Shown one piece after another: positions 3,562 through 53,193 of a stretch of 64,000 bases of DNA. Location of the stretch: positions 57,350,001 through 57,414,000 of the forward strand of contig OX597814.1 of NCBI GenBank assembly GCA_951406725.2. The letters run 5' to 3'. This DNA comes from Octopus vulgaris. Taxonomy: Eukaryota. The notes under the pieces are model-generated. The model was given only the letters and a program-made list of their open reading frames with translations. It was not told where the DNA came from and did not search any database. The first letter of the stretch is position 1, and every line of letters starts with the position of its first letter. The position numbers and the translations under genes are program-made.

Positions 3562-5595
3562 CAGTTATTCCCAACCTTTTTCAGACCAGGGACCATTTTT
3601 TACTTGAAAAAATTTCTAGGAACCACTTCTACTTTTACTTTATACTGTTCTATTTTCACACTAAATTACTTAATGAAAAGGCAAAATAGTCTATTACACT
3701 TTTAAATTTATTTTAGCAAACAAAAGATAAAATTAAAAATCTATTTTAGTAAACAAAGATAAACACAAGCTATCAAAATCCTTTTTCATAAAGTCGTTCA
3801 TTTTTAGGGCTAATGACTAGCTTGATATTGGTGTTTCTGACACAAGATATCATAATCGATTTTAATGAACTCATTTAGTCTTAGTCTGATAGTTACTCTG
3901 CTGTTGACATCTAATTTATTTCCTTTTCTACATAGAAATATCTACAACAGCTGAAAATGCAGATTCCATCATCCATGTGGTAGGGAAAGAAATAATGCAT
4001 GTGGGAAAATATTTGGGTGTGATTCCTTTATCAATATGTAGGTAAAGACACCTTCTTTTTCAACTCTTCTTCTCAGTTTCATATTCTCTTTCAAATCCAA
4101 CAACATTTCAGCCAACTCAAAATTTTCATCTCCTGGCTCATGATTTTCTTGGTCTACAAACCAGAGTGGATAGTCCATCTTTAATAAATCATTGTATCTT
4201 TTTTCAAAGATCTTTCTGCATGAAGACCTTCAAGAGGAGCAGTGCATGCAGCAATGCATTCTGATGTAGAAACAGTGGTGTTAAAATTTTGAAATGATGC
4301 CAATTTTTTTTTTTTTAAACTGTTTTTCCCAAAATTTTAATTTCCCCATATATATTTCCCTTTTATCTTCTGAGAGCAGGTGACCAAATCTGGTTTGCTA
4401 CCTTGCAGCTCTAAGTTAAGCAAATTCACTGTTTTAAAAATATCACTCAAGTAGAATATTTTTTGATTTAAACTCAGAAAGCCTTTCCAAAATTTTCTTA
4501 GCAGTATCAACTTTTTTCTTTGAGTTGTAATGAGTCATCTGACTCTTGAACATGAGAAAGTTGATTAATGGTTCCCACAAATTCGCTAGCCTTTCAAGGC
4601 TCAGGCCTTTTGACGACCATCTTCTGTGTGAAGCAATAGAGTTTTAAAATCTTCATCTTCACAGAATTGCATAAAAAAATCTATTATTCACTGAGTTTGA
4701 TTTGACAAAGTTAATTGCACGTATGGCAGCGTTGAGTGCTTCTTCCATGTGTCCTCCAATATTCTTAGCAACTAAATGCTGTTTGTGGATAATGCAATGT
4801 ATATAAAAAATGTGAGGAACAACTAATTTCATTCTAGAAACAAAGCCTTTCACTTTTCCAGTCATGGCTGCAACTCCATCTGATGCAATGTTGATCAAAT
4901 TAGTCAATGGAATATTTTTATCATTAAAATACTGCATTACTTCATTGAATATATCTTCTCCATAAGTAGTTTCAGACAAACTTTTAATGAATAACATTTC
5001 TTCCCTTATATCATTTTCATGGATGAATCTGACATAGACCAGAAGGATAGCTTGGTTATGAATTGTGCTATCATCAACCTGAATAGAAAAATTTGTCTTT
5101 TGGAGAATTTCTACAATCTTCTCCTCAACAAAATTAGACATTTCATCCTGTCTTCTTGTAATTGTGTTATTTGAAGGTGGAATTGTACTCAGAGTAAATG
5201 TAGTATCTTTTCTCAGAACCTCATATACACAAGCTATCATAGCAGGCTTGGCACGTTTCTCACCATAAATCTGCAACCTTGGCAATAATTTCAGAGACCA
5301 AATAACTTGGTTTGAGTGTTTTTGCTTTTTCAATATTTATCTTCTTTACAATGTCAGGTAGTTTGATTGATTGTATTTTCTTTTTATTCTCAAAATATTC
5401 CCTATCTTTACCAACAGATTTTGGATGCCTTAATTTCTGGTGTTGTTCCAGCTTAACTTTCTTCATGGAATGATTTGTCATGATGGCATCACATTCAAGA
5501 CACATAAGTTTTGAGTCTACAGATACAAAACCAAACATGATAAAATCTTCTTAGTAGTTCCTCAGTTTTGCCTTTTTAGCCGTTGATTCAGACAT
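3562..5595 (-). mobile_element. hAT (Buster/Charlie, ZBED8/SCAND3-like) DNA transposon; transposase pseudogene 5595->3810
   Basis: ORFs 5260..5538, 4659..5333 and 3969..4178 carry CLEC..H (BED-like), FSIQVDDST, ASDG, HCIIH and a QASH* end; TIR CAGTTATTCCCAACCTTTTT at 3562 after the 8-mer tccTAaag; other TIR not found. Confidence 0.9.
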
Positions 5596-6044
5596 TATTA
5601 CAACTGATCTTAAAAAATAAAAATAATAAATACTTTATTTCTATAAATTAAAAGTATCAAATTTATTATTAAACAATACCCTCCCTTTTCAGTATTATTT
5701 TTTCTTCATAATTAATTATAGGTTAATTAAAAGATTAATTAATATATTACTTATTTTATACTTTTAATAACTACCCATAATATATCATATTACTTAAATT
5801 CTTATAATTACATTCACAATTACTTTTATTTGATACTTAAATATACTTTATATAGATATATACTTTATTACTATATTTTATTCTTTATTTTCATTTTTAC
5901 AATAACTTCTCTAAACATACTACCTTCCCCACTCCTTGTAAGGTTTATACCATGCTCTTTCTATAAAACATTAATCAGTTAAAGGACACACTCCTTACAC
6001 TCAACACACAAAAATATGAAAATGTAATGTTATATCTTTTTCTG

Positions 6045-6124
6045 TCTCCAACGAGATTCAACTTTATGATATTTTTAATTATACTAATTAATTTCTAAAG
6101 TTTTGAATCGAAACAGCTGTCAGA
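6045..6124 (+). ncRNA. Degenerate type-I hammerhead motif (core CCAACGA)
   Basis: tct-CCAACGA-GATTCAAACTTTA...TAAAGTTTTGAATC-GAAAC-AGCT-GTC-aga; stems intact, CUGANGA box mutated. Confidence 0.6.
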
Positions 6125-6389
6125 GATGATGTCTATTTTAGTAATTAACAAATAATTATTAATTTAATTATCTCTATTTTATCATTTTCTTAAATATATA
6201 TAAACTCCGGTTCATCTAATTACCTTACAGTTGAATATTAAATATAATATTCAAAACTTATAATAGGTAATAAACCAGTAGATTCATTGGATTTTATTAT
6301 CACTTACAGAGGTATTGAACTTTAATTGAGCTTTCATATATATATATATATTTACATACATACATGTGTGTGTGTGTGTATGTATATAA

Positions 6390-6397
6390 TCATCATC

Positions 6398-6432
<35 letters not shown>

Positions 6433-6760
6433 TTAATGTCCATTCTCCAAGCTTGCATGGGTTGGACAGTTTGACAGGAGTTGGCCAGCACAAGAGCTAC
6501 TTTGGCTCCATCTGTCTCTTTTGGCATGGTTCTACAGCTGGATACCCTTCCTAATGCCAACCACTTTACAGAGTGTATGCGGTGCTTTTATATGGCACCA
6601 GCACATATATTTTTACATGGTACCGTCACCCACAAGCCCATATCATCATCATCGTTTAATGTCTGCTTTCCATGCTTGTATGGGTTGAACAGTTTGACTG
6701 AGGACTGGCAATCCAGCAAGCTGTACCAGGCTCCAATCTGATCTGGCAAGGTTTCTACAC
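6390..6760 (-). mobile_element. Two RTE-LINE 3'-end fragments with (CAT)n tails
   Basis: (CAT)n followed by ttaatgtc..ccatgc..gggttggac..ggatgcccttcctaa, matching the 3' UTR of the LINE at 24943-26498. Confidence 0.8.
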
Positions 6761-7114
6761 ACACACACATATATGGGAATTTTGACTGGCATCTGTATAA
6801 TCCAAATATATAATCTAAATAAGAAGATAAAGAAAGACTTTAACACATCTTTAATGACCATTTACAACTGTTTCTGTACTAAATCTACTTTCAATGCCAG
6901 TTCATGCAAAAGTTCCAAGGGAAAATTTACCTAATATTTGCAGTTTTAGACATTACAGAGTCACATATTCAGGCCTGTATCAAAAGTATGCTCTTATGTT
7001 GTGCATCTGCCTGGTTTTTGCTTTGTTTACATCAGGAGGAAACAAGAAGTAAATAAAGATGTATATATGTCTGTGTATGAATGTTTATATATGTATATGT
7101 GTGTCTATTTTTTC

Positions 7115-7495
7115 CCTAAAGAAAGCTGACCAGAAGAGAATTAATGCATTCGAGCTTTGATGTTGGAGAAGACTTTTGCGGATTCCATGGACAGCGAGGC
7201 TCATCAAAGGAGAAGTTCTTAAGCAGATAAGGCTGAAAATGTCGCTAGAAGCTAGGATCACCAAGCATAGATTGGCATATTTCGGTCATATTATGCGGAG
7301 AAAATCCCTGGAGAAGGACATCATGCTCGGAATGGTCAGTGGCAAGAGAGGAAGAGGCCGACCAAGAACCCGCTGGCTTGACACCATCAAGAGTGATACC
7401 AGAATGGACATAGCCAATCTGAAAGAAGCGGCCCAGGATAGAACTGACTGGAGGACACTGATCCATTGAGTGACTGAGAGTCGACTTCGACTGAG

Positions 7496-7500
<5 letters not shown>
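7115..7500 (+). mobile_element. RTE-clade (BovB-like) LINE 3' end
   Basis: LKKADQKRINAFEL*CWRRLLRIPWTAR...YFGHIMRR..LEKDIMLG..GKRGRGRPRTRWLD; ends gagagtcgacttcgactgagcgg. Confidence 0.88.
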
Positions 7501-7549
<49 letters not shown>

Positions 7550-7768
7550 TTTATTTTACTTGTTTCAGTCATTTGTCTGCATCCATGCTAGGGTATCGCC
7601 TTGAAATATTTCTAATTGAATGAATTGACCAGTACCTTGGTACTTATTTTATCAATTTTTTTTTTGCTGAACTGCTAAGTTACAGGAATGCAAATACACC
7701 AACACTGGTTGTCAAGTTCTGGTGGGGGACAAACACAGACACAAAGGTGCACACATAGATATATATAT

Positions 7769-7819
<51 letters not shown>

Positions 7820-7980
7820 AGGCTTCTTTCAGTTTCCATCTACAAAATCTACCCATAAAGCCCTGGTCAGCCCAAAACTGAAGCAAAGAATACTTGTCTA
7901 AGGTGCCACACAGTGGGACCAAACCTGGAACCATGCAGCTGGGAAGCAAACTTCTTATCACGCAGTCGCACCTGTGCCTA
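7550..7980 (-). mobile_element. tRNA-derived CORE-type SINE family B with internal (TA)n
   Basis: Homologous to 56215-56585, 9610-10022 and 15621-15895. Confidence 0.8.
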
Positions 7981-8012
7981 TATATATATATATATATATA
8001 GTTACTGGATAA

Positions 8013-8069
8013 CTCCAAATCCTGAATTTCTGGCTCTGCATAAGAAATGCTCTGCCTTCATCAGTGGAA
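8013..8069 (-). ncRNA. Type-I hammerhead ribozyme motif (Penelope-type)
   Basis: Minus strand: UUCCA-CUGAUGA-A-GGC AGA GCAU UUCUU AUGC AGA GCC-A-GAAA-UUCAGGA-UU-UGGAG; stems I, II and III all pair; triplet AUU. Confidence 0.7.
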
Positions 8070-8110
8070 TATACTCAGATAGCACATAAATACAAATATA
8101 TATATATATG

Positions 8111-8488
8111 TGGAAGCACTCCGTCGGTTACGACGATGAGTGTTCCGGTTGATCCGATCAATGGAACAGCCTGCTCGTGAAATTAACGTGTAAGTGGCTG
8201 AGCACTCCACAGACACGTGTACCCTTAACGTAGTTCTCGGGGATATTCAGCATGACACAGAGAGTGACAAGGCCGGCCCCTTGAAATACAGGTACAACAG
8301 AAACAGGAAGTAAGAGTGAGAGAAAGTTGTGGTGAAAGAGTACAGCAGGGATCACCACCATCCCCTGCCGGAGCCTCATGGAGCTTTAGGTGTTTTCACT
8401 CAAAAAACACAACGCGCGGTCTGGGAATCGAAACCGTGATCCTACGACCGCGAGTCCGCTGCCCTAACCACTGAGCCATTGCGCCTCC
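8111..8488 (-). mobile_element. tRNA(Arg-like)-derived SINE family C, near full length
   Basis: Minus 5' end GGAGGCGCAATGGCTCAGTGGTTAGGGCAGCGGACTCGCGG...GGTTTCGATTCCC with A and B boxes; inserted in (TA)n. Confidence 0.85.
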
Positions 8489-8678
8489 ATATATATATAT
8501 ACACCATATGAATACTTACATATACGAATGTATATATGCACGTATGCACACGACCAGTTTAAATTGCCTGCCTAAAACTCGTCATGCAATATGGTCAAAA
8601 TACCACCGCAGTGCATATAATGACAAAGTAAATATATATATATACTCAAAGTAAGCAACAAGAATAACTCCGGTAATT

Positions 8679-8762
8679 TGGTACGATCGTTTTGCACTAC
8701 ATCATTTTATTAAATGTTGTAAGTATTACAACAGTTTTAAAATGCTGAGCACTCATCAGCCA
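8679..8762 (-). ncRNA. Mirror copy of the hammerhead with GAAA->AAAA (predicted inactive)
   Basis: Minus strand reads ...GUAGUGC-AAAAC-GAUC-GUA-CCA. Confidence 0.7.
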
Positions 8763-8806
8763 TATCAAAATATGAAAATTATGTATTAATGGAAAACCTC
8801 TATCAA

Positions 8807-8890
8807 TGGCTGATGAGTGCTCAGCATTTTAAAACTGTTGTAATACTTACAACATTTAATAAAATGATGTAGTACGAAACGATCGTACCA
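8807..8890 (+). ncRNA. Type-I hammerhead ribozyme with long stem II
   Basis: UGG-CUGAUGA-GUGCU...AGUAC-GAAAC-GAUC-GUA-CCA; intact core; palindromic stem III ACGAUCGU. Confidence 0.8.
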
Positions 8891-9026
8891 AATTACCGGA
8901 GTTATTCTTGTTGATTACTTTGATTATAATCACCCCATGGATTTATATGGATAACACCATGGTGCATCTAACTTAAATACCAGATTCATTTGAATCTAAA
9001 TTTTGCTGAACTTATATATATATATA

Positions 9027-9060
9027 CTAGCAGAGATGCCCAGCATTTCTCAGGATTAAA
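9027..9060 (-). mobile_element. Helitron 3' terminus fragment
   Basis: Minus strand cctgagaaatgctgggcatctctgCTAG, like the terminus at 35461-35487. Confidence 0.5.
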
Positions 9061-9411
9061 ATGGCATAGTTTTATATTGTTTTACTTGCTTCAGTCATGC
9101 GATTGTGGCCATACTGGAGCACCGCCTTTAGTCAAAGAAATCGACCCCAAGATTTATTCTTTGTAAGCCTAGTACTTATTCTGTCAGTGTGTTTTGCCAA
9201 ATGACTGTCATGGGGATGTAAACACAGCAACATTGGTTGTCAAGTGATCTCAGGGCTACAAACACAGATGCACACACACACACACACACAAAAAAAATAT
9301 ACACATAAATAAGACAGACTGCTTTCACTTTCCATGTACTAAATCCACTCACAATGCATTGGTGGGCCTGAGGCTATAGTATATTTATATATATATATAT
9401 ATATATATATT

Positions 9412-9562
9412 CTCTCCTTGTTTTTTCTGTGTACCTTTCTGTAGAAGAGTGTAGGCTCAAAACGTAAAAGACTTTTTCTATTCCTGAGCGCTATACTAAT
9501 ACATCTGTTTGTTTTGTACACCATCTGTCTTTGTCTTTTGTTTTTTTCGTAAACTTTCCCTA
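9412..9562 (+). mobile_element. Penelope-like terminal repeat with a degenerate minimal hammerhead (9435-9470)
   Basis: CTTT-CTGTAGA-A-GAGT GTAG GCTC-AAAAC-GTA-AAAG; homologous copy on the - strand at 15240-15410. Confidence 0.6.
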
Positions 9563-9601
<39 letters not shown>

Positions 9602-9609
9602 CTTTCTCT

Positions 9610-9814
9610 TTTCTACTTGTTTCAGTCATTTGAATGCAGCCATGCTGGAGCACCGCCTTTAGTCAAGCTAATCAACCGAATGACTTATTCTTTGGAAGCC
9701 TAGTACTTATTCTATCAGTCTCTTTTGTCGAACCGCTAAGTTACAGGGACATAAACATATCACCATCGGTTGTCAAACGATGTTGGGGGGACAAACACAA
9801 ACACACAAACATAT

Positions 9815-9857
<43 letters not shown>

Positions 9858-10022
9858 TACACGACAGGCTTCTTTCAGTTTCTGTCTACCAAATCCACTC
9901 ACAAGGCTTTGGTCCACCTGAGGCTATAGTAGAAGACACTTGCCCAAGGTGCCACACTGGGAATGAACCCAGAACCATGTGGCTGGTAAGCAAGCTACTT
10001 ACCACACAGCCACTCCTGTGTC
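9610..10022 (-). mobile_element. CORE-type SINE family B
   Basis: Full-length homolog of 56215-56585. Confidence 0.85.
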
Positions 10023-10326
10023 TATATATATATATACATACATACATAAGTTAGCGGTTATAGTATAAATAAAAATATCCGTATTTACTATTGCTATCAG
10101 TTACCTGTGCTATTCCTGGGCATGGATATGCAGGCACACTATGCTCATGGCGTACAGGTAATAACAGAATAAACAAAAGTTTATCAAATTTAAATAATCA
10201 GAAAATGGAGAAAACTTTTGATCAACAAACAAACAAATTGGACCACATCTGTAGATTATTTTTTAATACAAAACATGACATAACATTTCTTGCGGCCGTT
10301 TCTGTTTTCGGCATTGGAATTTCAAA

Positions 10327-10362
<36 letters not shown>

Positions 10363-10431
10363 GATCTAACATGTATATATATATATACATATATATACAC
10401 ACACATATATGTATATATACATATACATGTA

Positions 10432-10482
<51 letters not shown>

Positions 10483-10536
10483 TACAATTGTGAATAATTG
10501 TATATTGAGTTGAGATGACGCATTCTAGTATCTCAA

Positions 10537-10568
<32 letters not shown>

Positions 10569-10699
10569 TCTTTGACACTATATGCTTACATACTTTACTT
10601 TATCTTAAAGTCATTCCTTAACTTCTCCCCTCACTCTATCTACCTATCTTTACTTTTCTTTCTTTTTACCACTTTATAGCCACCTTCTCTACCCTTCTG

Positions 10700-10925
10700 A
10701 TATTGCACGTTGATATGTTCGCGTCTTTTTCCTGGATGTTTACAATATCAGAACTTCAACCCACAGGATTATACCTAAGGACTTATTTCTACAACATCGG
10801 AAAGTTGAACTGTGAACTTTTATGCTTTTTTCCTTTCATCTCCTTATTCCTTTACTCCTGTCTTCTATGTTGTCATTTCATTAATCTATACCCTTCTCAT
10901 TTTCCCTATTTGTCTCTGATGATGG
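10700..10925 (+). mobile_element. Penelope-like element 3' end (GIY-YIG C-terminal remnant and 5' half of a hammerhead); continues at 15085-15190
   Basis: Peptide FSWMFTISELQPTGLYLR resembles the PLE C-terminal WIxxLxTLxPxGLN motif; GTCT-CTGATGA at 10912-10922. Confidence 0.6.
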
Positions 10926-11195
10926 TGTAGTGTGATGGATGAAGAGGACAACAGAAGGAGAAGGAGAAGAAATACAAAAGGCCTTACCTCGGCGAAGATC
11001 AGGTCTCTTACCAATTCGACACGTCCTGTCGCTTCCTCGTCTATGCTCGAACTGCTCGCTTCCTCGATCGCCACAAGTGCGTCCCACTTAACCGCTTCCA
11101 CTTCCCCCCCACACATACGCCCTCCAGTCTTCCACCGGACCCTGCAAGCCCTACTTCCGCCCACCTCATCTGTTGTCCTCTCCACCGACACCACA
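10926..11195 (-). repeat. 3' LTR (270 bp)
   Basis: Direct repeat of 14828-15084. Confidence 0.93.
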
Positions 11196-14041
11196 CGCCC
11201 CCCTGATCTACAGATCACTGAACTGGCTTTCTCACTCACTCTCCGCTCCCGAACTCACACCTTAATTGGTTTCATAATCAGCCAACAAGGGAGGAGGGTG
11301 CCGTTCCCTCTGTGGTCACAGTGCAACCCTAGGACTGGTTCCTGGCATGTTGCTACTGGCCTCATCATCCTATCTACTGATGTTGTTTTCATCTTGCCCA
11401 CTGCTGCTGATCCCATCCTCTGAGGCATGGACAATCCTTCGTACATCCAAAACGTGGCATGGCAAACCATCGACCGAGATGTTGTTCTTTAAATTTACAG
11501 AGGTTATTGTCCCCTTCCCCCATCATGATATACACTGTGCGTTTGGGGGTTTTACCCAAACTTCTTCCCCGACCTGCACGAAGGCATGCTCTTCCTCTGC
11601 CCCGGGTCGCATTGATGCAGTACACGGATGCCAGAATATTGCCCTGTGTGGCACCGACTCCTCAGCCTGTCCTGATCTGGGCGACATATTGTACCAAAAT
11701 ACAGCCTTGATTGGTGAAATTTGACTCCACTCTGCCATGGCCTTGATGGTATGATGATGCCTTTCCACCACCCCATTTCCACTTGGCCGGTATGCCGCCC
11801 TGAAGAAGCAGTTGACCTTCCACCCATCAAGCATTTCTTTCAGCACATCCGAGCGAAATACAGTGCCATTATCCAGAAGCAGTTCATCCACGGGGCCTCG
11901 TTCCAGGAATGTCTCATTCACTACTTTCACAATTTCCACTGCGGTCCCCGTCTTCATCTCCCTCTATATGGCCAACCGCCCCAGTCTGCAGTCAACCATT
12001 GAGAGGTACGTCCCCTGCCGGTAGTGTGTTATGTCCACCACCAGTCGTTTCCAGTCGTGGTCCACTGGAATACTTCCCGCCTCATGTACGCCCGGAGCAG
12101 GGTCGATGGACTGGCACCTGTCACAACTGCTAACCACTCTCTGCACGCTCTGTCTTGTTACATCGGAGTCAACTTTTCTGGCTAGGAACAATATCCTGTC
12201 CACACCCATGTGATGCATGGTATGCAGTCTCCGCAACTCCAAGTTGCTCAGACGGCATACTGCAGCTACAGCCTGCTTCACATTCTCTGGCACCTGCAAC
12301 CAGGCTCGCTTTACCCTGGTCAGGACATCTGCCCTGTTCTTCTCGGAAGGCACAAAGATCACGCTCAGCTTCAGATTGAACTCAGTGGTTAGTTCACGCA
12401 GTATCCCCAATCAATGCTTTACCAGCATCTCTGCAACCCCTTTGGTTCGCACCCTCCGCTCATTGGTGATGACTGCTGTCACCCAACCAAGTACAGTGGC
12501 CGAATCAGTCCTGATTTCTATGGTGTGCAACCCCCACTTCAAGGCTAGGTTCACCCCCTTCAACACGGCATCCAACTCCGCCACATTGATATAATTGCAG
12601 TCATCCGTCTTCCTGAGCCAGGCTGCATCTTCCACCATGACACCTCCCACTTCTAAGACAACCCCTATCGCGATGCTACTGGCATCACACCATACAATCC
12701 CGCTCTTTGATTTGGGAACATACTAACTGCCCCTCACTGGGTTCTCTGCTCCTACTCTGACCAAGACTTCCTGTATCATGTCGATCGTCTTCTCCCACAC
12801 TCTATCGTTCCACTTCACTCCTTCGGCTCGTCTCTTGATGAAGCTACATGCTGTCTGGAGCCATCCTGCAATCAGGTAGTGTCCCACCAGCTTCCCACAC
12901 ACAGAGAACAGTTCCCATCTACTCATGCTGGCACCCAGTTCAGGGACCTCATTCCCTCGCCGGAACACCAACACACCAGCCTTGTATCTCCATAGTTTGA
13001 GGCCCAGTGCAGCACCTCCCTCCATTGCCTCTGGTGGCTTGGCGATCAGTCCAAAACTCTTCAGGTGGCCTATGACCTCCGTTGCTGGCATTACGGTTTC
13101 GTCCACCAGAATGTCATCGATGTACGAATTGGTGGCCCTTTTTACTCTGTCCACCTTTCCCAGGATAGCCTTGAGAATTGTTGCCACAATCTTTGGCGCT
13201 GAATTCAGCCTGAACCCCAACCTGGTCAGACAGTACGTCCGGCCCTTATACCTGACAAGCTGGTACTTCCACAATTTCTCAGCCACATGCACCTGTAGGT
13301 ATGCCGACTTCAAATCAACAATCGTGGAGGCCCCTGTCATCTGCCTCCACTCTTGCAAGGTGTCTCTGCAGACATCTGTGGCCTAGCTGCCTGTATGACA
13401 TGATACGTGGTCATTCAGCTCTCGGAAGTCAAGCACTGGCCTGACCTTATGCTTTGTGGGCTGTATCACCACTATCAGTGGCAGGACTCCGCTCTCTTCT
13501 TTTTCCCAAGGGATCAATATGCCCTCCTTAATCCACCGCTCCACCTCCCCCTCGAACTCACTTCTGGCATCTCCTTTTAGAGTATGCTGATAGCAGCCCA
13601 CTTTATTCTTTAACATCGGGGGCTCTCTCTTCCAGTGCAGCATGCTTTTCCTCACGGTTGTCACCAGTGCATGGTCTCGCCATACGCGGTTTCCTCGCAA
13701 ACCCAAACGTTACACCGGCCTCGTTAACAGTGACATCTCCCAAACGGGTGATTGCATCCATCCCCATCACCACGTCAATCTCGTCCAATAAGTAGCCAAC
13801 CACAATTGCTCGCAGCGTCAGCTGTATTCCCTGCACTACAAACCGTGCATCTGTAACGCCTTCACAGTGTACTTCTCTTCCGTCGACTGCTCTTACACTG
13901 CTTTCTCCACTCCACATCTCTGCCACTTCTGGAGTCATCAGGGTTGTCATAAAGCCCGTGTCCACAAGGGCTCGCGACATCTTCCCCTCCGCCAGAATGT
14001 CGACCACAGGTAGTGACGATAAATGTGCCTCTATTGATCCA

Positions 14042-14085
14042 AAGGGACAACTACCAGCGCAGTAGTCTCCCTCAGTCCGTTTCCC
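14042..14085 (-). other. gag-pol -1 ribosomal frameshift signal
   Basis: G GGA AAC in the gag frame (14085-14079), 6-nt spacer, then hairpin AGGGA GACUAC ugcgcug GUAGUU g UCCCU; the -1 frame is the protease ORF 13603..14094. Confidence 0.8.
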
Positions 14086-14827
14086 CACAGACATTCACTG
14101 GCTATATGCCCCAGTTCTCGACACCGGTAGCAAATGACCTCAGGCTTGGGTGACTTGCAGTCACGCACCATTTCCAGACCCTGGCACCGGAAACACTGTC
14201 CTTTGAACGGTCGCACACGTTCTTTCTTCAACCCCTCTCCACTGCTCCTAGCTCGGCCACTTTTCATTGTTGCAGTCGCTGGTACTGACGTCATTCTGCT
14301 GCATGAAACTAGCACGTGTGCCCGAGATACGATGTCTGCCATTGGCATCGAATGAACGTTCAGAAGCTGCTGTAATTCTCGACCGACATGTTGTCAGGAA
14401 AGCCAGTCACGAACGCCAACCTAACCATCCGGTCCAGCAACTCTTCCTCATAACCCGCCAGTTTAGCCAATCTCCTAAGTTCATTGGCAAATACATCCAC
14501 CTGTTCCCCAGTCCATCTTGTTCTACCCAGGCGATCATATGCCTCAAACATTCCCTCCGCAAAGGCCTCCATCAACCGTATTTCTACTTTCTCCGCGCTG
14601 AGTTGGTCTGTCTCCTCCATCTCTAGATACAGCGCCAATGCCGGACCATCCAAGTACAGCGGTATGAAACTCGCTAGGTCGTTTATACCGTGGAGCTTTG
14701 CCACCAACTTCACCTTCTTCAACCAAGCGATTACATCCGTGTCGCCGCAAAACGGTTTAATCATCTTGTGCGAAATATGGGCACTCATCGTTCATTTTTT
14801 TTTTTTTCTTTATGTGCCGAAATAGCT

Positions 14828-15084
14828 TGTAGTGTGATAGATGAAGAGGACAAGAGAAGGAGAAGAAATACAAACAAGCCTTACCTCGGCGAAGATCACT
14901 GGTCTCTTACACGTCCTGTCGCTTTCTCGTCTATGCTCGAACTGCCCACTTCCTCAATCGCCACACGTGCGTCTCGCTTGACCGCTTCCGCTTCCCCCCG
15001 CACATGCACCCTCCAGTCTTCCACCGGCCCCTGCAAGCCTTACTTCCGCCCACCTCATCTGTCATCCTCTCCACCGACACCACA
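14828..15084 (-). repeat. 5' LTR (257 bp)
   Basis: Direct repeat of 10926-11195. Confidence 0.93.
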
Positions 15085-15239
15085 GACAGAATATCCCATA
15101 CTCTGGGATAACCCAGAAACAGCTGTAAGGCTTTGAATTTCTTCCAATAATAATAATGTATATGACTTAAGATGTTTGCCTTACCTTAATGTTTGTTGTT
15201 TCCTTTAACAATTATATATATATATACATATATGTATAT

Positions 15240-15410
15240 AAAGGGAAATTTTTACGAAAATAAACAAAAGACAAAGGCAGGTGGAGTACAAACAAACAAA
15301 TGTATTAGTATAGCGCTCAGGAATAGAAAAAGGCTTATACGTTTTGAGCCTACGCTCTTTGACAGAAAGATACACAGAGAAAAACAAGGAGAGAAAAAAA
15401 TGCGTGTAGG
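15240..15410 (-). mobile_element. Penelope-like terminal repeat with a degenerate minimal hammerhead (15334-15369)
   Basis: Reverse-complement homolog of 9412-9562. Confidence 0.6.
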
Positions 15411-15585
15411 AATACATATATATGTATATGTACATATATATATGTGTATGATACATATATATATGTATCATATATATGCTACATATATATATGTATCATA
15501 TATGACTGGGCCTGATGAAGCCTTCCGGCTTCACAGACCCCAGTTGAACCGTCCAACTCATGCTAGCATGGAAAACGGACGCTAA

Positions 15586-15617
<32 letters not shown>

Positions 15618-15620
15618 ATA

Positions 15621-15895
15621 GGCACAGAAGTGGCTGTGTGGTAAGTAGCTTGCTAACCAACCACATGGTTCCGGGTTCAGTCCCACTGCGTGGCATCTTG
15701 GGCAAGTGTCTTCTGCTATAGCCCCGGGCTGACCAATGCCTTGTGAGTGGATTTGGTAGACAGAAACTGAAAGAAGCCTGTCGTATATATATATGTGTGT
15801 GTGTTTGTGTGTCTGTGTTTGTCCCCCTAGCATTGCTTGACAACCGATGCTGGTGTGTTTACGTCCCCGTCACTTAGTAGTTCGGCAAAAGAGAT
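15621..15895 (+). mobile_element. CORE-type SINE family B, 3' truncated
   Basis: ggcacagaagtggctgtgtggtaag..ggttcagtcccactgcgtggcatcttgggcaagtgtc. Confidence 0.85.
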
Positions 15896-17290
15896 GGAAG
15901 TCTGCAGGTGCAGAAGTGATACCATGTTGTGTTTGGGGAAAAACTCCTGAGTAGGGAGAACTCAGTGACAGGGTGCATAATTGTTGTGAAGAATTCAATT
16001 CTTCGCACTCCACATATCCAGTTGCTTTCACCAAATGTCCTCCCTCAAATGCTTCAAAATGTCATAGCAGAACTCTCATTTGATGGACTGGCCCTGGGGT
16101 ACAAATTCTCAATGCACAATACTGCAGATGCTGAAAAAAATATGAGCATACTCTTGATTGAGCTGTGGCTCTGTCATGTGTATGAAAGCCTCTTCCATTG
16201 TGACGACTGCTGCTTCATCTCAGAGTTGTACCCATAGACCCAACTCTCGTCACTGGTGATGATCTTTGACATGAAGGATGGGCCATCAGTGGCATGCTGA
16301 TGGGGATCTTGAAGTCTTCAACAAGATGTTCTTTCTGCTCAGTGGTCAGCAGGCAGGGAACAAACTTGGCAGAGATATGCTACATGTTCAATTCAGAAGT
16401 TAGGATTGCCTCGTGAACCCATACGACAGACCAACAACATCAGCAAAGTCATTGATTGTCTTCCAACAGTCTTCCTACACAAGCTGATGGATTTTCTCTA
16501 CAGCAAGACACCTGTTTCTGCTTCTCTGTCATACTCTAACCTTTCATCATTTGACACAAGATCATTTCCGTAAATGCCCTCACTCCTCTCAAAAATTTAT
16601 TGTCTTACAAGTAAAAAGTATCCAGTTCACACTGTGAAGTGGTTTACATTTGGAAGGGCGTCAAGTAGTAAAAACCATGCCAGAACTGACCTCAGCTGTG
16701 CTGGAGTCACATAAAAAGCACTCAGTCTACTCTGCAGGGTGTTAGGAAGGGCATCCAGCCATAAAGACCATGCCAAAACAGACTCAAAAGCTTGGTGTTG
16801 TCTTCTACTTGGCCTGGCTCCTGTCAAACCATCCAACTCATACCAGCATTGAAGACAGATGTTAAACGATGATGATGATGATTTTCTGGGGTGATGCTTG
16901 TGGCAGGTCTTCCAGGTAGCTCATCTTCCAGTGACATTCTTCCACTTTTGAAATGCCTGTGCCACTCAAAACATTGCATATGACCTATTAATTTGTCACC
17001 ATAAGCTTGCCGAAGTATGCTCAATGTCTCTGTAGTAGACTTCTCAAGTTTAATGCAAAATTTCGCATTAGCACTTCAATCCAACTTCTTGCCCATGACA
17101 AAATTACAGACTACAGCATACATGTGATCACAAAAACACAAATTTCACAACTTGTGAAGTAAACACAGTGATGTCACTTGGCACAGTGGCTCATGAATGT
17201 AACTGCTAGCTCTCACTACACACTCAACTGTATGCTGCCATCTGTTTGCATGCTACATAACTAGTCCAGGAACTTTTTAATACCCCTCAT
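15895..17290 (-). mobile_element. Mariner transposon relic (5' TIR and decayed transposase), interrupted by an RTE 3' fragment at about 16500-16880
   Basis: TIR tatgaggggtattaaaaagttcctgga at 17290; QAYG..CFEWHRHFKSGRMSLED; IITSDESWVYGY. Confidence 0.8.
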
Positions 17291-17530
17291 AAAACCCTTG
17301 ATTCAATAGCACTGTGCACAAACACTATACTTGGAATGACCAATTTTAAATACTATTGGATTTTACTCACAAGGTATTGGAATCTTATATATATATATAC
17401 CATTCTGCCTAAATAATGGATCTACAAATGCAATATCTCTGCATATCTCACATCTATTTTCATTCCTCCACTTCACTCTCTATTTTGTATTGTATCTAAA
17501 TTAACTATTGCTTAACCATTTTCTCACACC

Positions 17531-17578
17531 GTCTCTGATGAAGGGATATAATAAATATCCTGGAAACAGCTGTAAGAC
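17531..17578 (+). ncRNA. Type-I hammerhead ribozyme motif (Penelope-type)
   Basis: GUCU-CUGAUGA-A-GGGAUAU AAUAA AUAUCCU-G-GAAAC-AGCU-GUA-AGAC. Confidence 0.8.
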
Positions 17579-17859
17579 CTTCTATTTATAAATGTTCTAA
17601 AATCTTCACAGCCTTGGTTTTTTTATCTCATTCTGAAAAAAATTTTTTATATATATACACATGCTGATATATGACGTATGTTGGACTCCTTATTCACATA
17701 ATCATCGAACCTGGAACTTAACTATGGTCTATCCATAGCACTTACTCAGCATTATCTGATACCTTTGGGTCTTACTGACACCATTACCTCTCATAACCTC
17801 CTATACATATATATATATACAAAATAAAATCCAGGCTACCTATAGCAAAAGTGACCAGA

Positions 17860-18254
17860 TCTGTGGATGGTGAAGAATTGTATTCCTCATCAAGCTCTCC
17901 TCACTTGTGAGTTTCTCCCCCAAAATATGTTATTGCTTCCACACCTACCCTATTCATAAAATTTAGCACCTGCAGACTTCCATCTCTTCCCCAAAATGAA
18001 TATGCAGTTCAAAGGTTGCCTTTTTAACAGCATTGTTGAGGTCCAGAGTGAATTACAGAAGGTTCCCGATTCACTTATGGAAAACAACTTCCAGGCCAGA
18101 TTCCAAAAGTGGCAGGAATGCTCAGACCAGTGCATTGCTGCACAAGGTGTGACTATTTTGAAGGAGATGATGTTAAAACTTAGGTAGTTAAGTTACTTTT
18201 TAGCATAATATTTTTTAACATATCCAGTCCAGGAACCTAATGATACCACCTTGT
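17860..18254 (+). mobile_element. Mariner relic, 3' part and TIR
   Basis: LPHLPYS*NLAPADFHLFPKM...KWQECSDQCIAAQG; ends ccaggaacctaatgataccaccttg-TA. Confidence 0.8.
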
Positions 18255-18271
18255 ATACAAATACATATATA

Positions 18272-18329
<58 letters not shown>

Positions 18330-18462
18330 TAATCCAAACATGAAAACACAAAGAGAAAACACAACGCGAGGACGTGGAACAAATATAGTATTATTGGACG
18401 CTCAGGAAGGAAGGATATATATATTTATGTGTAAGTATCTCATTTATTTCTTTTACCACATG

Positions 18463-18520
18463 TATCACTGACGAAGAGAGGGCTCTCAGTAGCTAACTCT
18501 GAAATTGGTCCAATATGGTA
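18463..18520 (+). ncRNA. Type-I hammerhead ribozyme motif
   Basis: UAUCA-CUGACGA-AGAG..GGCU CUCAGU AGCU..CUCU-GAAA-UUGG U CCAA-UA-UGGUA; all three stems pair; triplet AUA. Confidence 0.78.
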
Positions 18521-19526
18521 ATAATGGAATTTTTTAGAAATTTCTGTCAACCTTTTTTTGAGCAGCATGCATATTGTGAAAAAATTATATGGTTAATGGA
18601 CAATATGTCCAATTTTTCGGCATATTTGGCATTAGAAATTTTTTCCTTTGCCCTCATTTATGAATTGTTTATAAATTTAACCGTTAAAGGTATTTTTTAA
18701 TATGCTGGCCATTGATAAAATTTTTTTCGAGAAAATATTTTTTTCGAAAAGAATTTTATCCTCACATTTTATATATATATATATACATACATACACACAC
18801 ACACACATATATATATTATTTATCTTATTATTTAATTGAAGCCACGCATCCATTTCCAAGTAAGTTTATCTTAACCCTTTTGATGGAACTCTATACCGTT
18901 TTCTCCCCTATCCTCTTTAATTCTCTTTTTCTCCCTCTCACCGTTTTCTATCTGTCTCTTTCTCTTTTTCTCTCCCTTGTTACTTACATGTGACCATTGT
19001 TCATTTTTTTTTTTCCTCACTTGACTATCTTTCTTTCCTGCACAGACATTCTAAGGACTAGATGTCTATCTCTCTCTTCTATCTTTTCTCTTTTCAAAAA
19101 AAAATATTTCTCTCAGTGTTCACTATTTTTCCCTTCGTTCAGGTCTAACAACCCTCCATGTTTATTTGCATTCAGTTTCCCTGTGTGTCTTCACTGTCCT
19201 GTTTTTGTTCTTAACTTTGACCCTCCATAAATCCCAAAAATTTTATTTAGGTATTTATGAGAACAACTGTCTTTGAAGACTCATAATGTCATTGATTGCT
19301 TGAAATGGGGAGTAGATAGACAGCCGACAACTGATGAAGAGTCATTCTTTGTATTACTTGTCCCCTTTTTCTCTCGTTATTTGCATATTTAATGTTGTTT
19401 ACTGTTGTGACATCCTGTACCAATGTATGCATATATATATATATATATATATGATATGACTGTGTGTGTGTGTGTGTGTTATTTATATTATTATTTAATT
19501 GAATGCCATGCAGCCATTTCCAAATA

Positions 19527-24942: not shown

Positions 24943-26497
24943 TCATCATCATCATTTAGCGTCCGCCCTCCATGCTAGCATGGGTTGGACGGTTCAACTG
25001 GGGTCTGTGAAGCCAGAAGGCTGCATCAGGCCCAGTCTGATCTGGCAGTGTTTCTACGGCTGGATGCCCTTCCTAACGCCAACCACTCCGTGAGTGTAGT
25101 GGGTGCTTTTTACGTGCCACCCGCACAGGTGCCAGATGGAGCTGGCAAACGGCCACGAACGGGTGGTGCTTTTACGTGCCACCGGCATGCCGCTGGCAAC
25201 GACCACGATCGGATGGTTCGCTTACTTATCACCGGCACTGGTACCACAGCTGCAATTTCCATTGATGTTGATCGACTTCGATTTTGGTTCTGCTTTCTGA
25301 TATCGGATTTGATTTGGTTTGATTTTGATTTTGATTTTCACTTGCCTCAACGGGTCTTCACAAGTGGAGTTTTGTGTCCCAAGAAGGAAAGGTATGTAGG
25401 CCACAGGTTATGTTCTCACTAGTCTTGCCGGGTCTTCTCACGCACAGCATACTTCCATAGGTCTCGGTCTCTAGTCATTTCCTTGGTGAGACCTAAAGTT
25501 CGAAGGTCGTGCTTCACCACCTCGTCCCAGGTTTTCCTGGGTCTACCTCTTCCACAGGTTCCCTCAACTGCAAGGGTGTGGCACTTTTGCACACAACTAT
25601 CTTCAGCCATTCTCGTCACATGACCATACCAATGCAAACGTCTCTCTTGCACACCACAACTGATGCTTCTTAGGTCCAACTTTTCTCTCAAGGTACTTAC
25701 ACTCTGTCGATTATGAACACTGACATTACACATCCATCGGAGCATACTGGCTTCATTTCTTGCGAGCTTACGCATATCCTCAGCAGTCACAGCCCATGTT
25801 TCACTACCATGTAGCATGGCTGTATGTACACAAGCATCATACAGTCTGCCTTTTACTCTGAGCGAGAGGCCTTTTGTCACCAGCAGGGGTAAGAGCTCTC
25901 TAAACTTTGCCCAGGCTATTCTTACTCTAGCAGTTACACTTTCAGCACACCCACCCCATCTACTGACTTGGTCACCTAGGTAGTGGAAGCTATCAACTAC
26001 TTCTAGTTTTTCTCCCTGGAACGTGGTAGAAGTTGGTCTCTGCACATTTTCAGTGTTTATTGCTCCTGAGCATCTGCCACAGATAAAAACTATTTTCCTA
26101 GTTAGCCTTCCTTTGACATTGCTACACCTCTTATGTGTCCATAGCTTACACTTGGTGCACCTTATAGAGTTTCTACCTACGCCTTTTTTACAAATCGAGC
26201 AAGGCCATCTACCTGAAGGCGTTTTTGATTGGTCTACCTTCCTACTTATTAGGACTTTGGTTTTGGCTAGGTTGATTCTAAGGCCCTTCGATTCTAAACC
26301 TTGCTTCCACACCTGAAACTTCTCCTCCAGTTCTGTTAGTGACTCAGCAATTAGAGCAAGGTCATCAGCATAGAGGAGCTCCCCGGGGCATCCTGTCTTG
26401 AATTCCTCCGTTATTGCCTGGAGGACTATGATAAATAGGAGGGGACTGAGGACTGAACCTTGGTGGACCTCTACCTGGAATTCTTCACTGTACTCGT

Positions 26498-26498
<1 letters not shown>
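24943..26498 (-). mobile_element. 5'-truncated RTE-clade LINE (RT C-terminal half and 3' UTR)
   Basis: GSVLSPLLF and LLYADDL upstream of ORF 25419..26312 (YLG, LHGSETW, WYGHV, RGRPRKTW); (CAT)n tail. Confidence 0.95.
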
Positions 26499-26528
<30 letters not shown>

Positions 26529-31720: not shown

Positions 31721-32139
<419 letters not shown>

Positions 32140-32998
32140 TTGGGTTGTCTGGAAAGTTCATGCCGATTATAGCAGCTTACCTTTCGACTTATTTTCGAAC
32201 ATGGTTGACTCCATAAAATAGGATTTGACTACACCTCCATTTAGAGCACAGTTTAAGCTATCTTTTCATGGAAGAAGGTTTATGTTCCTATAACCTGTGT
32301 TAATTCTGTAACCCTTTAAAATGGAAGATAAGAGAGTTCATTTTCGGCACTTGATGCTTTTCTTTTTCTGTAAAGGGAAAAATGCCTCCCAAGCAACCAA
32401 AGAAATATGCACAGTTTACGGAAGTGGTTCGCAAGGTTCCGAAATGGAGATTGTAGCCTTATTGATAAAGAGTAATCAGGCAGACCATCCACTACAGATG
32501 ATGACCAAATCAAGTCATTAATTAAGAATAACCCACATTGCACAACCCAAGAATTGGCAGAAAGCCTCAACCTATCAAAATCCGTTGTTCATGAGCACCT
32601 GGTAAGGCTTGGGTACACAAATAGCTACGATGTTTGGGTACCACATGAGTTGAGTGAGAAGAACCTTTTGGATCGCATTTCCATCTGTGATTTGCTTTAT
32701 AAAAGGAAATTGTGACAGGTGATGAGAAATGGATTATATACCGAAATGTTCAGAGAAAGCGATCCTGGAGTAAGCAACATGAGCCATCCTTAGCCATCCC
32801 AAAAGTGGGTCTTCACCCTAAAAAAGTCTTACTTTGTGTCTGGTGGGATTGGAAAGGAATTCTGTACTATGAGCTTCTCCCAAGTAACCAGACAATTCTG
32901 AGAAATACTGCACACAATTGGATGAGTTAAAAGCAGCAATTCAAGAGAAACATCCAGAATTGGCCAACAGGAAAGATGTTTTCCAACATGATAATGCA
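32140..32998 (+). mobile_element. Second mariner relic, 3' truncated
   Basis: TA+TTGGGTTGTC TIR; MEDKRVHFRHLMLFFF, WVPHEL, VTGDEKW, LHPKKVLLCVWWD, FQHDNA. Confidence 0.9.
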
Positions 32999-34264: not shown

Positions 34265-35487
34265 AGAGTTACTGACAGAAGTAACTCCATAAATTTCACT
34301 TCAATCCATACACCTTCTTAAATTTGCCTATAAATTTCTTATTTACCTTTGTAAGAGTTTTGTGTTTTTCTGCTGATAACAGCTTTTTTCTGGTTCCATC
34401 AACACTGGCTCTTTGGTTCACTAATAAATTTCACTTCAACTCGTACCATTCATTATTTTCTGTAAAAATTTCTTATTTACTTTCTGCTTTCATATTAAGA
34501 AATATAATTTCCGTTACCCAGTTATTTTCATTGTTTACTATCTTCTGCACCTGTGTATTTCTGTATACATATTTAACCATACCTAGAAGGAAAGTGTCAA
34601 ATTGTCTACGATGTCAAGGTCAGCCAAATGAATGTCTCTGTCCAGAGAAAGAGAGACAGCTGCAGAAAGGGAAGCACACCAAGAAAAGAACTGACTGTGC
34701 ACTACAAAAGCCAGAGCATCTCGAAGTAATGAATAGAGGTATGCACAGCTGACATGGAATAGAATCTCCACTGCAGAACGAAGCAAGCACAGTTGCAACA
34801 GCTCAGAGCAGCAACTTCTATGAAGCAGCTCTCAATTATGATCCAGCAGTTCTTATACAGATGATGCTAGAGTTTCCATTGGTGCAATGATAACTGAGTG
34901 CATACATTGTAAAGCAAGGAAGTGGTCTGGAGAGACACCTGCACTGTGCTGCAGTGGTGGAAAGCTTAAACTCCCTGCAATTCCCCAACCTACAGAGCCA
35001 TTGAAGAAACTGTTGTCATCAACTGACCAAGATTCCAAGCACTTCCAAAACAAAATTAGACAATACAATGCTGCACTACAGATGACATCATTTAGAGCCA
35101 CAAGAGATTTAACTGTGCCAGGATTCATGCCAACTTTCAAGATCCAAGATCAGATTTATCATTGGATTGGCTCTCTACTACTTCTGTCAAATGAATCACC
35201 AAAATCAGCCTTTCATTGTTTATAATCTGTACCTGTTTTTTTCGTTATGAAATAAGCTGCACAAAACATGTTTTTGAATTACATATATTTTCTTTACATA
35301 CACGAGTTGAAAACTTTCTTTTAACATTTCACTTAACGTCTATGTTCCATGGTGGCATGGGTTTGAAAATTATTAATGTAGAAAGTTGGTATGTCAGCTA
35401 CTAGCAGTTGAGACCTGCATAATCTAGATGGCGTTTTTAAATTTCATTATTCTCTTTAACCTGGGCAACACTGGGTATTTCTGCTAG
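34265..35487 (+). mobile_element. Internally deleted Helitron
   Basis: ORF 34887..35225 has the RepHel N-terminal motif CIHCKARKW..E....CCSGGK..LP...HFQNKIRQYN..QMTSF...FKIQDQIYH.IGSL; 3' hairpin ctgggcaacactggg and CTAG at 35484-35487. Confidence 0.88.
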
Positions 35488-35933: not shown

Positions 35934-35990
35934 GGTACGAATCCAACTTCACAACCTCAGGCTAATCCATTAATGCGAGCACCGTTTGGG
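35934..35990 (+). CDS. PRPF40: PRPF40 exon 2 (GTNPTSQPQANPLMRAPFG)
   Basis: Polypyrimidine tract with tag acceptor, gtaagt donor, 57 nt open, phase 0/0. Confidence 0.7.
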
Positions 35991-37877
35991 GTAAGTAATC
36001 TTTTAAAAAAAATTTTTTTTTTGCTGTAGTAGTTATATGTACTCTCTATCTATGTGGTCAGTTATGTATCTAAGCTATATTTGCTACAATTCTTTTTCCC
36101 TCCAAGCATTTTGTCTATTGTGGTTTGTCTCCAGACATGCTGCAATGGATAAAATGCTTGGAGGGAAAACTAGTGAAGAACTAGGTACAATTTAACTTTT
36201 GGTAACTATGGGAAACAACTGTAGATGTGTTTCTATCCTAATTTAACTTCTTTGGTAAAGCATAGCCTTGACCATTGTGAGAATTATTAAAGAAATGTAC
36301 GAGAATGTACACTTGTTGGTGTAGAAAATATTTAGAGAATGAATAACCATATTGGGATTGACTTTCATTTGGTGTGGGTGTAAATATCACATTGAAGGGA
36401 GTGGTCCAAGAATTAGAGCTGCTATTCTTGGAATCCATTAAGTTTTATATGTAAATCCTTGTGACAAAATATTTTTGCAATCTGGTAATAGTAACTAGTG
36501 CAGTAATACTTATTTGCAAATTTGGTGTGTATTATTTTGTTAAACTCTTTTACTGAGAGGTGTTTATGTACACTCACATCTATGTTGGCACTTAAAGCAA
36601 TTACCAAAAGCCACCAAACATCGTTTGGTTTTTAAGTGATGACTGCTCTTTTTTTAATATAATTGAACTGGAGCACCACTTTCTCTTCAGTACTTGTTTT
36701 AATCAGGTACAGTCTTTATTACTAAGTTATACTTTCACATAAGGAACACAACTTGACACCACCCATTAACATGTGTAAACATACAGACACAGATATATGC
36801 ATACATGTCATAGCAAGGGAGACACCATTAATTACCATTGTAAAAAGAACTTCGGTGGTTTTGCTCATACAATTTTGCTGCTTTGCTGAAACTTTTCAAT
36901 GGCACTTCATTTGGGTTTTGCAGTATTACTGCCACTCCATTTGTTATGACAATAAGCGTTCCTGTTGATCCGATCAATGGAACAGCTGTTCGTGAAATTA
37001 ACATGCAAATGATTGAGCACTCCACGACCCTGCATACCTTAACCCTTTAGTGTTCAGATTATTCTATCAAACATAATGCTTATTGATTCCCATTGATTTG
37101 AATTAATCATGCATTATCCCATATCTTCAAGATCTTGATGGTGTAATTACATAATGTAGAATAACATTGTAAGGTAGGTGTGAGAGCCTGGATCTGGTCA
37201 GTTTGAACATAAGACAGATTAGCTATTTTGGCCAGATATGGCCGGTTTAAATACTAAAGGGTTAAATGTAGTTTTCAGAGAAATTTCATGTGATACAAAA
37301 TGTGACAAGACTGGCCCTTTGAAATGCAAATACAGCTCATTTTTGCCAGCTCGGTTGACTGGATCAACTTGAAATAAAGTGTACTGCTCAAGGTCATAGC
37401 ACACTACTAGGTGTTGAACTCATGACCTTATGATTGTAATCTGAATATGCTAATCACTTGGCCTTCGCTTGCAGTAATACAGGGCTATCAAAGCCCTCCT
37501 GCATTATCTCTATCTAACTTTTTATAGCTGTTCAGTGCTGTTGCGTGGCATCTTGGACAAGTCTCTTCTATTATAGCCCTGGGTCAACCAAAACCTTGGT
37601 TGACCCAAGGCTATAAAAGTTCATCATATTAGTGTGTGTATATAAATGTTTTTGTACCCTTGTCCTTATTGTAAATGAGCATCACTATCATACAAGCAAC
37701 ATTGTTTGTTTTTAGTCACAAAAAAATATGCCTAACCATGATGGAAATATTTCTTTGCTTGGAACAGTTAGGGGTTGGCAACCAGAAAAGCATCTACCTC
37801 AACCAATTCCATCTGACCCTTGCAAACATGGAAAAGTGGACACTAAATAATGATGATTAACACATTATCATCATCAT

Positions 37878-52907: not shown

Positions 52908-53193
52908 GTAAATTGCATGATTTTTCTTTTCTTGCTTTCTTTTTTTGTTACTCCTTTCATTGGTTTACCTCTTTCTACCATATTTTATTTATTTTTCTAC
53001 TTTGTTGTACAGCTTATATTTTAAAAGCTATGGTTAAGATTCTGGACTATTTAAAATTTTATTGTAAATCCAGGTGTGTTATCTTTCCTAAACTGAATTA
53101 CACAAACTGCATAGATGAATAGATATTAATATGAAGGTCTGTTAGTATACAAGTCATATAATTTTGTATTATATAAATTAACAAACTAAAGTA

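Follow-up and report, generated by a model that had tools for sequence, protein, structure and literature searches.

In the 64,000-nucleotide stretch of the Octopus vulgaris genome analyzed here (contig OX597814.1, positions 57,350,001 to 57,414,000; hereafter, the window), ten hammerhead ribozyme motifs lie upstream of the gene PRPF40. The most probable reading, to which we assign a probability of roughly 85%, is that these are minimal hammerheads of type I, each contained in a short copy of one of seven repeat families, that the copies represent 3' ends of Penelope-like elements (PLEs), as shown for three families and likely for the other four, and that they are likely silent relics at this locus. 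The motifs had been listed in a preliminary description of the window, and a check of the window sequence recovered all ten at the coordinates given there.

The hammerhead motifs belong to seven dispersed repeat families

The motifs display the type-I order of elements, namely, stem I, core box, stem II, GAAA, stem III, UH and stem I'. The G10.1-C11.1 pair is present, often with an extra base after A9, and stem III is a short palindrome (CAGCTG, CGATCG or CG) or, in families C and D, a near-palindrome. The suggestion that the differing stems point to several families was borne out: the motifs fall into seven repeat families dispersed genome-wide, denoted A to G, with 470 to 3729 members per family, these sizes being first-look candidate numbers of which 40 were scored per search. 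The copies end approximately 20-250 nt past the cleavage triplet, near (TA)n, and one or both ends of most inspected copies are flanked by (TA)n, in agreement with the insertion site proposed previously. The 5' ends are ragged in families A, E, F and G, and an inverted second copy accompanies the first in 9 of 30 family A loci, an arrangement also found for the family B motifs 8679 and 8807 of the window. Extra bases on both sides of the foot of stem II (A.G, A.A, A-U, C.A or U.U) were observed in families A, C, D and G and in several singletons.

The first motif of the window (6045-6124, plus strand) lies in a family E copy (~5991-6200; 470 candidates) and has the stem III CAGCTG and the core CCAACGA, the family being mostly CCGAYGA. 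The family C copy (8002-8109; 1172 candidates), located between (TA)n tracts, carries a minus-strand motif (8013-8069) with the core CTGATGA; the stem II base is flanked by an additional A on either side, and three bases in stem III and the cleavage site differ from the family. Family B (1859 candidates) is represented by a PLE 3' end (8770-9026, plus strand) with a hammerhead at 8807-8890 (CTGATGA, G10.1-C11.1, long loop II, stem III CGATCG) and by an inverted copy (8641-8763, minus strand; motif 8679-8762 with G12>A) that forms the left arm of a 123-bp, 97% hairpin; thus, the two motifs previously counted separately are both present but constitute a single inverted-duplication insertion. Two motifs belong to family F, one in a PLE 3' end (9410-9575, plus strand; motif 9435-9470) and one on the opposite strand (15334-15369). 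Both had been considered mutated, but the U6 that they carry (CTGTNGA) is the norm of the family, and the true lesions are G12>A in both copies as well as G8>A and a stem I mismatch in the second one. The family A PLE 3' end (17289-17819, plus strand; 3729 candidates) includes a motif at 17531-17578 with the stem III CAGCTG, an A.G opposition at the stem II base and the core CTGATGA, whereas most copies of the family have CCGATGA. Finally, the family D copy (18426-18790, plus strand; 2012 candidates) carries a motif (18463-18520) with the core CTGACGA and a 4-bp stem III in which two CpG positions differ from the family, with the pairing kept. The four cores described previously as intact (8013, 8807, 17531 and 18463) are so only in relative terms: 8013 and 18463 depart from their families, and 17531 shows a minority state. 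The tenth motif (31721-31806, plus strand) is present but is a degenerate relative of family B that fails the descriptor used below. A fragment of an F-related family (18340-18414, minus strand) is truncated before its hammerhead.

The motif described as split between 10912 and 15131 proved to be real, given that unsplit members of family G (890 candidates) hold both halves side by side. The 5' half (10912-10925, plus strand) ends in GATGG, and the 3' half (15085-15131, plus strand) consists of GACAG, stem II, GAAA, CAGCTG, UA and stem I'. These two 5-bp target-site copies, both of which are present in uninterrupted members of the family, bound a broken Gypsy-type long terminal repeat (LTR) retrotransposon (10926-15084, minus strand; LTRs 86% alike) that sits inside the hammerhead.

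Families A, B and F are continuous with PLE reading frames

The proposed Penelope-like origin holds for families A, B and F, which run into GIY-YIG or reverse transcriptase (RT)/GIY-YIG frames. In family A, two independent loci (L256 and L263) can be aligned at 81% along 1679 bp, a stretch that leads from a GIY-YIG-type frame to the 3' end also found in the window copy. In family B, a GIY-YIG-type frame is located ~600 bp upstream of the motif on the same strand (L245), and a relative found 10-20 kb upstream of the window is organized alike. In family F, the alignment of L341 with L345 spans 1134 bp at 79.5%, and walking upstream led to loci that are continuous from GIY-YIG to the hammerhead. 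When the GIY-YIG domain of family F was used as a protein query, 12,977 candidates were obtained in the genome; of the 18 loci fetched in this way, two of which (L358 and L367) coincide, 17 have the motif downstream and in the same orientation, and all 18 motif copies at these loci have U6. One such element (L364) contains two family F motif copies 4.4 kb apart, flanking an open reading frame (ORF), and the 826-aa frame of another (L361), which shares 27% identity with a different PLE of this genome, combines RVT_1, a CX2-5CxxC linker and a weak C-terminal GIY-YIG match. This continuity of sequence identifies families A, B and F as the 3' ends of Penelope-like retrotransposons; the remaining four families likely have the same origin.

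Several observations weigh against this assignment. In Pfam, the GIY-YIG matches of the linked frames score under the cut-off; no ORF link was found for families C, D, E and G, for which no extra upstream genome walk was made; the nearest GIY-YIG to family E copies is on the opposite strand or downstream; and a PLE family of this genome encoding a 781-aa protein has no hammerhead by the descriptor. Furthermore, covariation within the families is thin, with 1 of 8 pairs changed on both sides, and CpG decay can account for the paired change in 18463. The covariation found in the stems, a compensatory G-C/C-G change in stem I between family F and its relatives, speaks in favour of the assignment but is weak evidence because it represents one inherited event among 12 related rows. 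In addition, many family F copies start near one point, and a short non-autonomous F subfamily is therefore possible.

GIY-YIG pieces near L017, L023, L115, L118 and L143 were considered as further links and rejected, being on the wrong strand or side or showing no continuity. The 781-aa PLE family (L236:930-6172 and many other loci) contains many open RT/GIY-YIG frames, preceded by a second frame, and has direct repeats of 456 bp that are 99% alike. Approximately 16-20 kb upstream of the window (L200:1-3990), there is a 5'-truncated relative of family B with a GIY-YIG frame, a long 3' region, a hammerhead and an inverted copy.

Non-canonical cores prevail in whole families

With the core positions numbered according to general knowledge and the cited hammerhead papers, the canonical CUGANGA core is found in families B, C and D, whereas A and E have mostly CCGANGA, G is mixed and F has CUGUNGA. 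Among the first 100 listed of 324 exact family A matches, 79 have CCGATGA and 21 have CTGATGA, and the canonical-looking core of 17531 was likely produced by CpG decay. In family F, an exact 35-nt pattern has T at core position 6 in 12,412 copies and another base in 385 (62 C, 26 A and 12 G among the first 100 listed of the latter). A set of 28 distinct, incidentally encountered F copies gave the same picture: position 6 is T in 27 of the 28, position 7 is T in 6, G in 8, A in 9 and C in 5, and position 17 is T in 12, A in 15 and C in 1. Beyond CpG decay, positions 7 and 17 are the only strongly polymorphic sites in this set. The hammerhead consensus leaves these two positions free, so the confinement of variation to them suggests selection on the fold while the F subfamilies arose. 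The U6 motif is also present in both terminal repeats of a long-ORF F copy, and the F-related families have CCGACGA or CTGAAGA together with the compensatory stem I change. The retention of U6 in family F alongside variation at the free positions suggests a tolerated, probably slow, variant core that is predicted to permit cutting still. A very young PLE (L239:1821-4983), with a 766-bp inverted copy at 100%, has the core CCGAAGA and the stem III GTAC.

A serious, if doubtful, alternative is that the motifs with U6 (family F) or C4 (families A, E and G) are dead ribozymes that were amplified because PLE insertion is independent of cleavage, the remaining sequence being preserved for a role in protein binding or folding. 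Both A6C and U4C were reported to reduce activity in vitro, A6C being slow at <0.1 per min (PMC3088659), and hammerhead mutations had no effect on the insertion of an Anolis PLE in vitro (PMC11167929), so that U6 could be a dead core. However, G5, G8, A9, G12-A15, U16 and a non-G at position 17 are retained while positions 7 and 17 vary freely, U4C is tolerated by a viroid in vivo according to the same report (PMC3088659), and CCGAAGA occurs in the very young PLE with the 100% identical inverted copy (L239).

The octopus motifs resemble hammerheads of known PLEs

Minimal hammerheads have been described in the pseudo-LTRs of metazoan PLEs, with no cleavage of monomers and low cleavage of dimers (Cervera and De la Peña 2014, PMC4209133). 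The octopus motifs share with those reported there the type-I layout, the short stem I, the palindromic or absent stem III, the extra base after A9, G10.1-C11.1, the multiplicity of families per genome and the occurrence mostly as lone copies or close inverted pairs located 3' of truncated RT/GIY-YIG frames. They differ in number (~110,000 copies here versus up to ~9,000), in the long loop II and in the frequent extra base before G12; the molluscs in the alignment of that study are Lottia and Crassostrea rather than octopus. The family-wide CCGANGA and CUGUNGA cores are found in none of the examined rows of its Fig. S3, and the descriptor of that study would miss them.

By domain order rather than by an RT tree, family F can be likened to Neptune/Nematis-type PLEs (Craig et al., 10.1101/2021.04.23.441226), which have the same succession of RT, CX2-5CxxC linker and GIY-YIG as L361 (the GIY-YIG match of the latter being below the Pfam cut-off) and also show 5' truncation, inverted 5' copies and tandem terminal repeats. 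The same report describes (TA)n targeting for Naiads and includes Octopus Naiads, reported without hammerheads. In Anolis Poseidon (PMC11167929), as in octopus, the hammerhead is located just upstream of the end point of the genomic copies and the targets are AT-rich; however, activity and its dependence on the protein of the element were measured there, with cleavage found to need the protein, whereas the octopus motifs are known from sequence. By analogy with the Anolis PLE, reverse transcription would start shortly downstream of the ribozyme and usually abort, so that even the shortest copies would keep the hammerhead, and the endonuclease would prefer AT-rich DNA. In the parent element, the two terminal repeats may pair via the palindromic stem III and cut the tandem transcript, probably aided by the element's protein. 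The local pile-up of motifs in the window would reflect repeated, nested insertion into a microsatellite-rich (TA)n stretch without detected host coding sequence.

The preliminary description regarded the elements as non-autonomous Penelope- or retrozyme-like units, a status that does not fit families A, B and F, whose longer copies are continuous with protein-coding frames. For families C, D, E and G or for a short F subfamily, it is unlikely but conceivable that these are dedicated non-autonomous or retrozyme-like units that rely for their copying on PLE proteins acting in trans, possibly via circular RNA: no ORF link was found for the four families, some D loci (L102, L104 and L105) contain same-strand pairs ~500 bp apart, many F copies begin near one point, and animal retrozymes have been reported to derive from PLE terminal repeats (10.64898/2026.07.22.740005). 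Against such units stand the ragged 5' ends in A, E, F and G, the extension of A, B and F into ORFs, and the observation that no tandem array in the window holds any of the motifs. Non-LTR retrozymes (PMC7229834, 10.64898/2026.07.22.740005) are likewise PLE-related animal repeats with type-I hammerheads, but they form head-to-tail arrays of 150-450-bp units, each with a hammerhead, that are expressed as abundant circular RNA, in contrast to the single or inverted copies of the window, and the parent does not code for protein, unlike octopus families A, B and F. The possibility that the window motifs themselves are tandem retrozymes was ruled out on the same grounds of copy arrangement.

The cluster is ordinary for the octopus genome and unlikely to be active

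To compare the motif density with the background, we used a relaxed type-I descriptor (core CYGWNGA, one additional base allowed at either flank of stem II and a near-palindromic stem III), which yielded 5 matches in 6000-18600, at 6048 with one core mismatch and at 8064, 8810, 17535 and 18468 with none, and 0 in the remaining window; under a strict descriptor without bulges, 18463 was the sole match in the window. No match was obtained in 40 dinucleotide shuffles of 6000-18600, confirming the excess over shuffled sequence. Because the descriptor had been loosened using the family alignments, matches to the window's own motifs are partly circular, and tests on random genomic sequence and with stem III left free were therefore added. 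In 60 evenly chosen 10-kb stretches (600 kb), there were 24 matches, 20 of them without a core mismatch, versus 0-2 in five shuffles. With stem III left free, 25 matches were found in the 600 kb versus 2 in ten shuffles, and stem III was an exact palindrome in 16 of the 25 real matches and in neither of the 2 shuffled ones. In 1.35 Mb of enriched sample, the hammerheads form 35 sequence clusters, a few singletons among which may be chance matches.

The background of 24 matches per 600 kb corresponds to 0.50 per 12.6 kb, or approximately one per 25 kb, and extrapolates from the 600-kb sample to ~110,000 motifs in the 2.8-Gb genome. The cluster exceeds this background ~10-fold (P=1.8e-4 for 5 matches in one 12.6-kb bin), and the maximum in any of the random 10-kb samples is 2 matches. 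Nevertheless, under Poisson alone, ~40 equally dense 12.6-kb bins are expected genome-wide, and the enrichment across the whole 64-kb window is nonsignificant (P=0.12). The 60 kb upstream of the window contain 7 further matches, three in one 8-kb tandem repeat and two in one inverted element, and the 40 kb downstream contain no descriptor matches; accordingly, 12 matches are located in the 78 kb ending at 18.5 kb and 0 in the following 85 kb, which include PRPF40. Less readily reconciled with this is the equal repeat coverage, 0.37 in 6-18.6 kb and 0.37 in 18.6-35.9 kb, alongside a local motif density 10-fold above background; the pile-up is therefore not explained by general repeat density but is specific to these elements. 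Overall, such a cluster is nothing unusual in this genome, and the notion of a special cluster tied to PRPF40, which lies 17 kb away, was not upheld. At the upstream loci L196-L198, a tandem repeat of ~8.15 kb carries the same hammerhead in every unit.

It had also been proposed that intact copies could cut any transcript crossing the locus. This appears unlikely, because 6 of the 10 window copies are mutated or split, no intact pair of the same family lies on one strand, and cutting by 8807 would be prevented by the inverted repeat at 8641-8928, whose predicted hairpin (-192 kcal/mol) would sequester the motif on either strand; in published assays, minimal PLE hammerheads are also inactive as monomers and weak as dimers (PMC4209133) or depend on the element's protein (PMC11167929). 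The same inverted repeat is a likely A-to-I editing substrate if transcribed. The best candidate for monomer cleavage, as predicted from its 4-bp stem III, is 18463. Conceivably, though this is speculative, 17531 could form a mixed dimer with the family G 3' half (15112-15131) through the common CAGCTG. For five window motifs, the calculated helix energy of the dimer is 10-16 kcal/mol below that of two monomers. The monomer hammerhead fold is never the predicted minimum (folding probability 1e-7 to 2e-4), values that do not signify inactivity given that nearest-neighbour energies do not score the hammerhead core. Four presumed-RNA contig sets gave repeat-dominated cover with no locus-specific bridge and, lacking molecule ends, are silent on expression and cleavage.

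The local enrichment, with 12 matches in the 78 kb that end at 18.5 kb but 0 in the 85 kb beyond, might suggest that the host maintains the cluster as a means of cutting or terminating read-through transcripts before PRPF40, and both the 4-bp stem III of family D and the CAGCTG shared on the plus strand by A, E and the G 3' half, which makes a mixed dimer conceivable, would suit such a role. This is highly improbable, considering that the four copies that are neither mutated nor split drift from their families, the strands are mixed, 8807 is trapped in its hairpin, and dozens of such bins are expected by chance; the absence of motifs from the gene fits ordinary selection acting against insertions into genes, which has been reported for frog retrozymes (10.64898/2026.07.22.740005). 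The short stems (3-5 bp), the unfavourable monomer folds and the failure of the Rfam covariance-model check (0 hammerheads among 69 matches at E<=10) could evoke mere chance similarity within AT-rich sequence, but this reading is refuted by the shuffle controls, along with the family membership and ORF linkage, and has a negligible probability.

Genomic surroundings of the cluster

The gene in the window matches PRPF40 of Octopus bimaculoides at 98% and that of Argonauta at 78%, and its first coding match (35934-35993, plus strand) is 17.4 kb downstream of the last motif of the cluster. Pfam searches with 54 of the 107 frames of >=75 aa in 1-36 kb detected only transposon domains, a result compatible with small exons or a long upstream intron. 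Transposon remnants are located at 4659-5336, 16824-17075, 25419-26528, 32476-32930, 34842-35225 and 53177-55136 and include Mariner and RTE-type LINE according to Pfam; others we take to be hAT-like, Helitron-like and an intronic LINE from the resemblance of their translations.

In the Gypsy-type element, the primer-binding position beside the 5' LTR (14816-14827, minus strand) is complementary to the first 12 nt of host tRNA-Phe(GAA) genes (L370 and L372) rather than to the 3' CCA end of a tRNA. It would be unusual for a short 5' tRNA fragment to serve as primer, and a literature search on such priming found nothing. Arrays matching the tRNA-Phe 5' end are present at C18:30147734-30149746 and C6:130.88-131.01 Mb, one of them with an exact 200-bp period.

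Implications for PLE ribozymes

Our literature searches listed no report of Octopus or cephalopod hammerheads, and the main text of a study on O. vulgaris repeats (PMC13282606) contains neither 'ribozyme' nor 'hammerhead'. Likewise, no report of A6U/CUGUNGA cores was listed, although the small PLE variants of Lunse, Weinberg and Breaker 2017 may already cover them. Natural changes at positions 4 and 6 that keep low activity are on record as rare, slow variants (U4C and A6C; Perreault et al. 2011, PMC3088659), but as single viroid or phage cases, whereas here A6U is fixed in >12,000 copies and several subfamilies. The PLE minimal hammerhead as such is a known kind of ribozyme; what is new is that A6U and U4C cores extend across whole families.

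We tentatively propose, at somewhat less than even odds, that the PLEs of octopus rely on active hammerheads whose cores are non-canonical, with A6U in >12,000 exact copies of a family whose subfamilies vary only at positions 7 and 17 and U4C in several more families, the element's own protein compensating for the weak core. If so, standard descriptors and Rfam would be missing a large class of natural ribozymes. For those studying ribozymes and transposons, the many hammerhead clusters and copies of this genome amount to a natural experiment, in which changes to almost invariant core positions have passed through large amplifications. Set against the Anolis result, A6U implies that either the core tolerates U6 or PLEs keep the hammerhead fold for a reason other than cutting.

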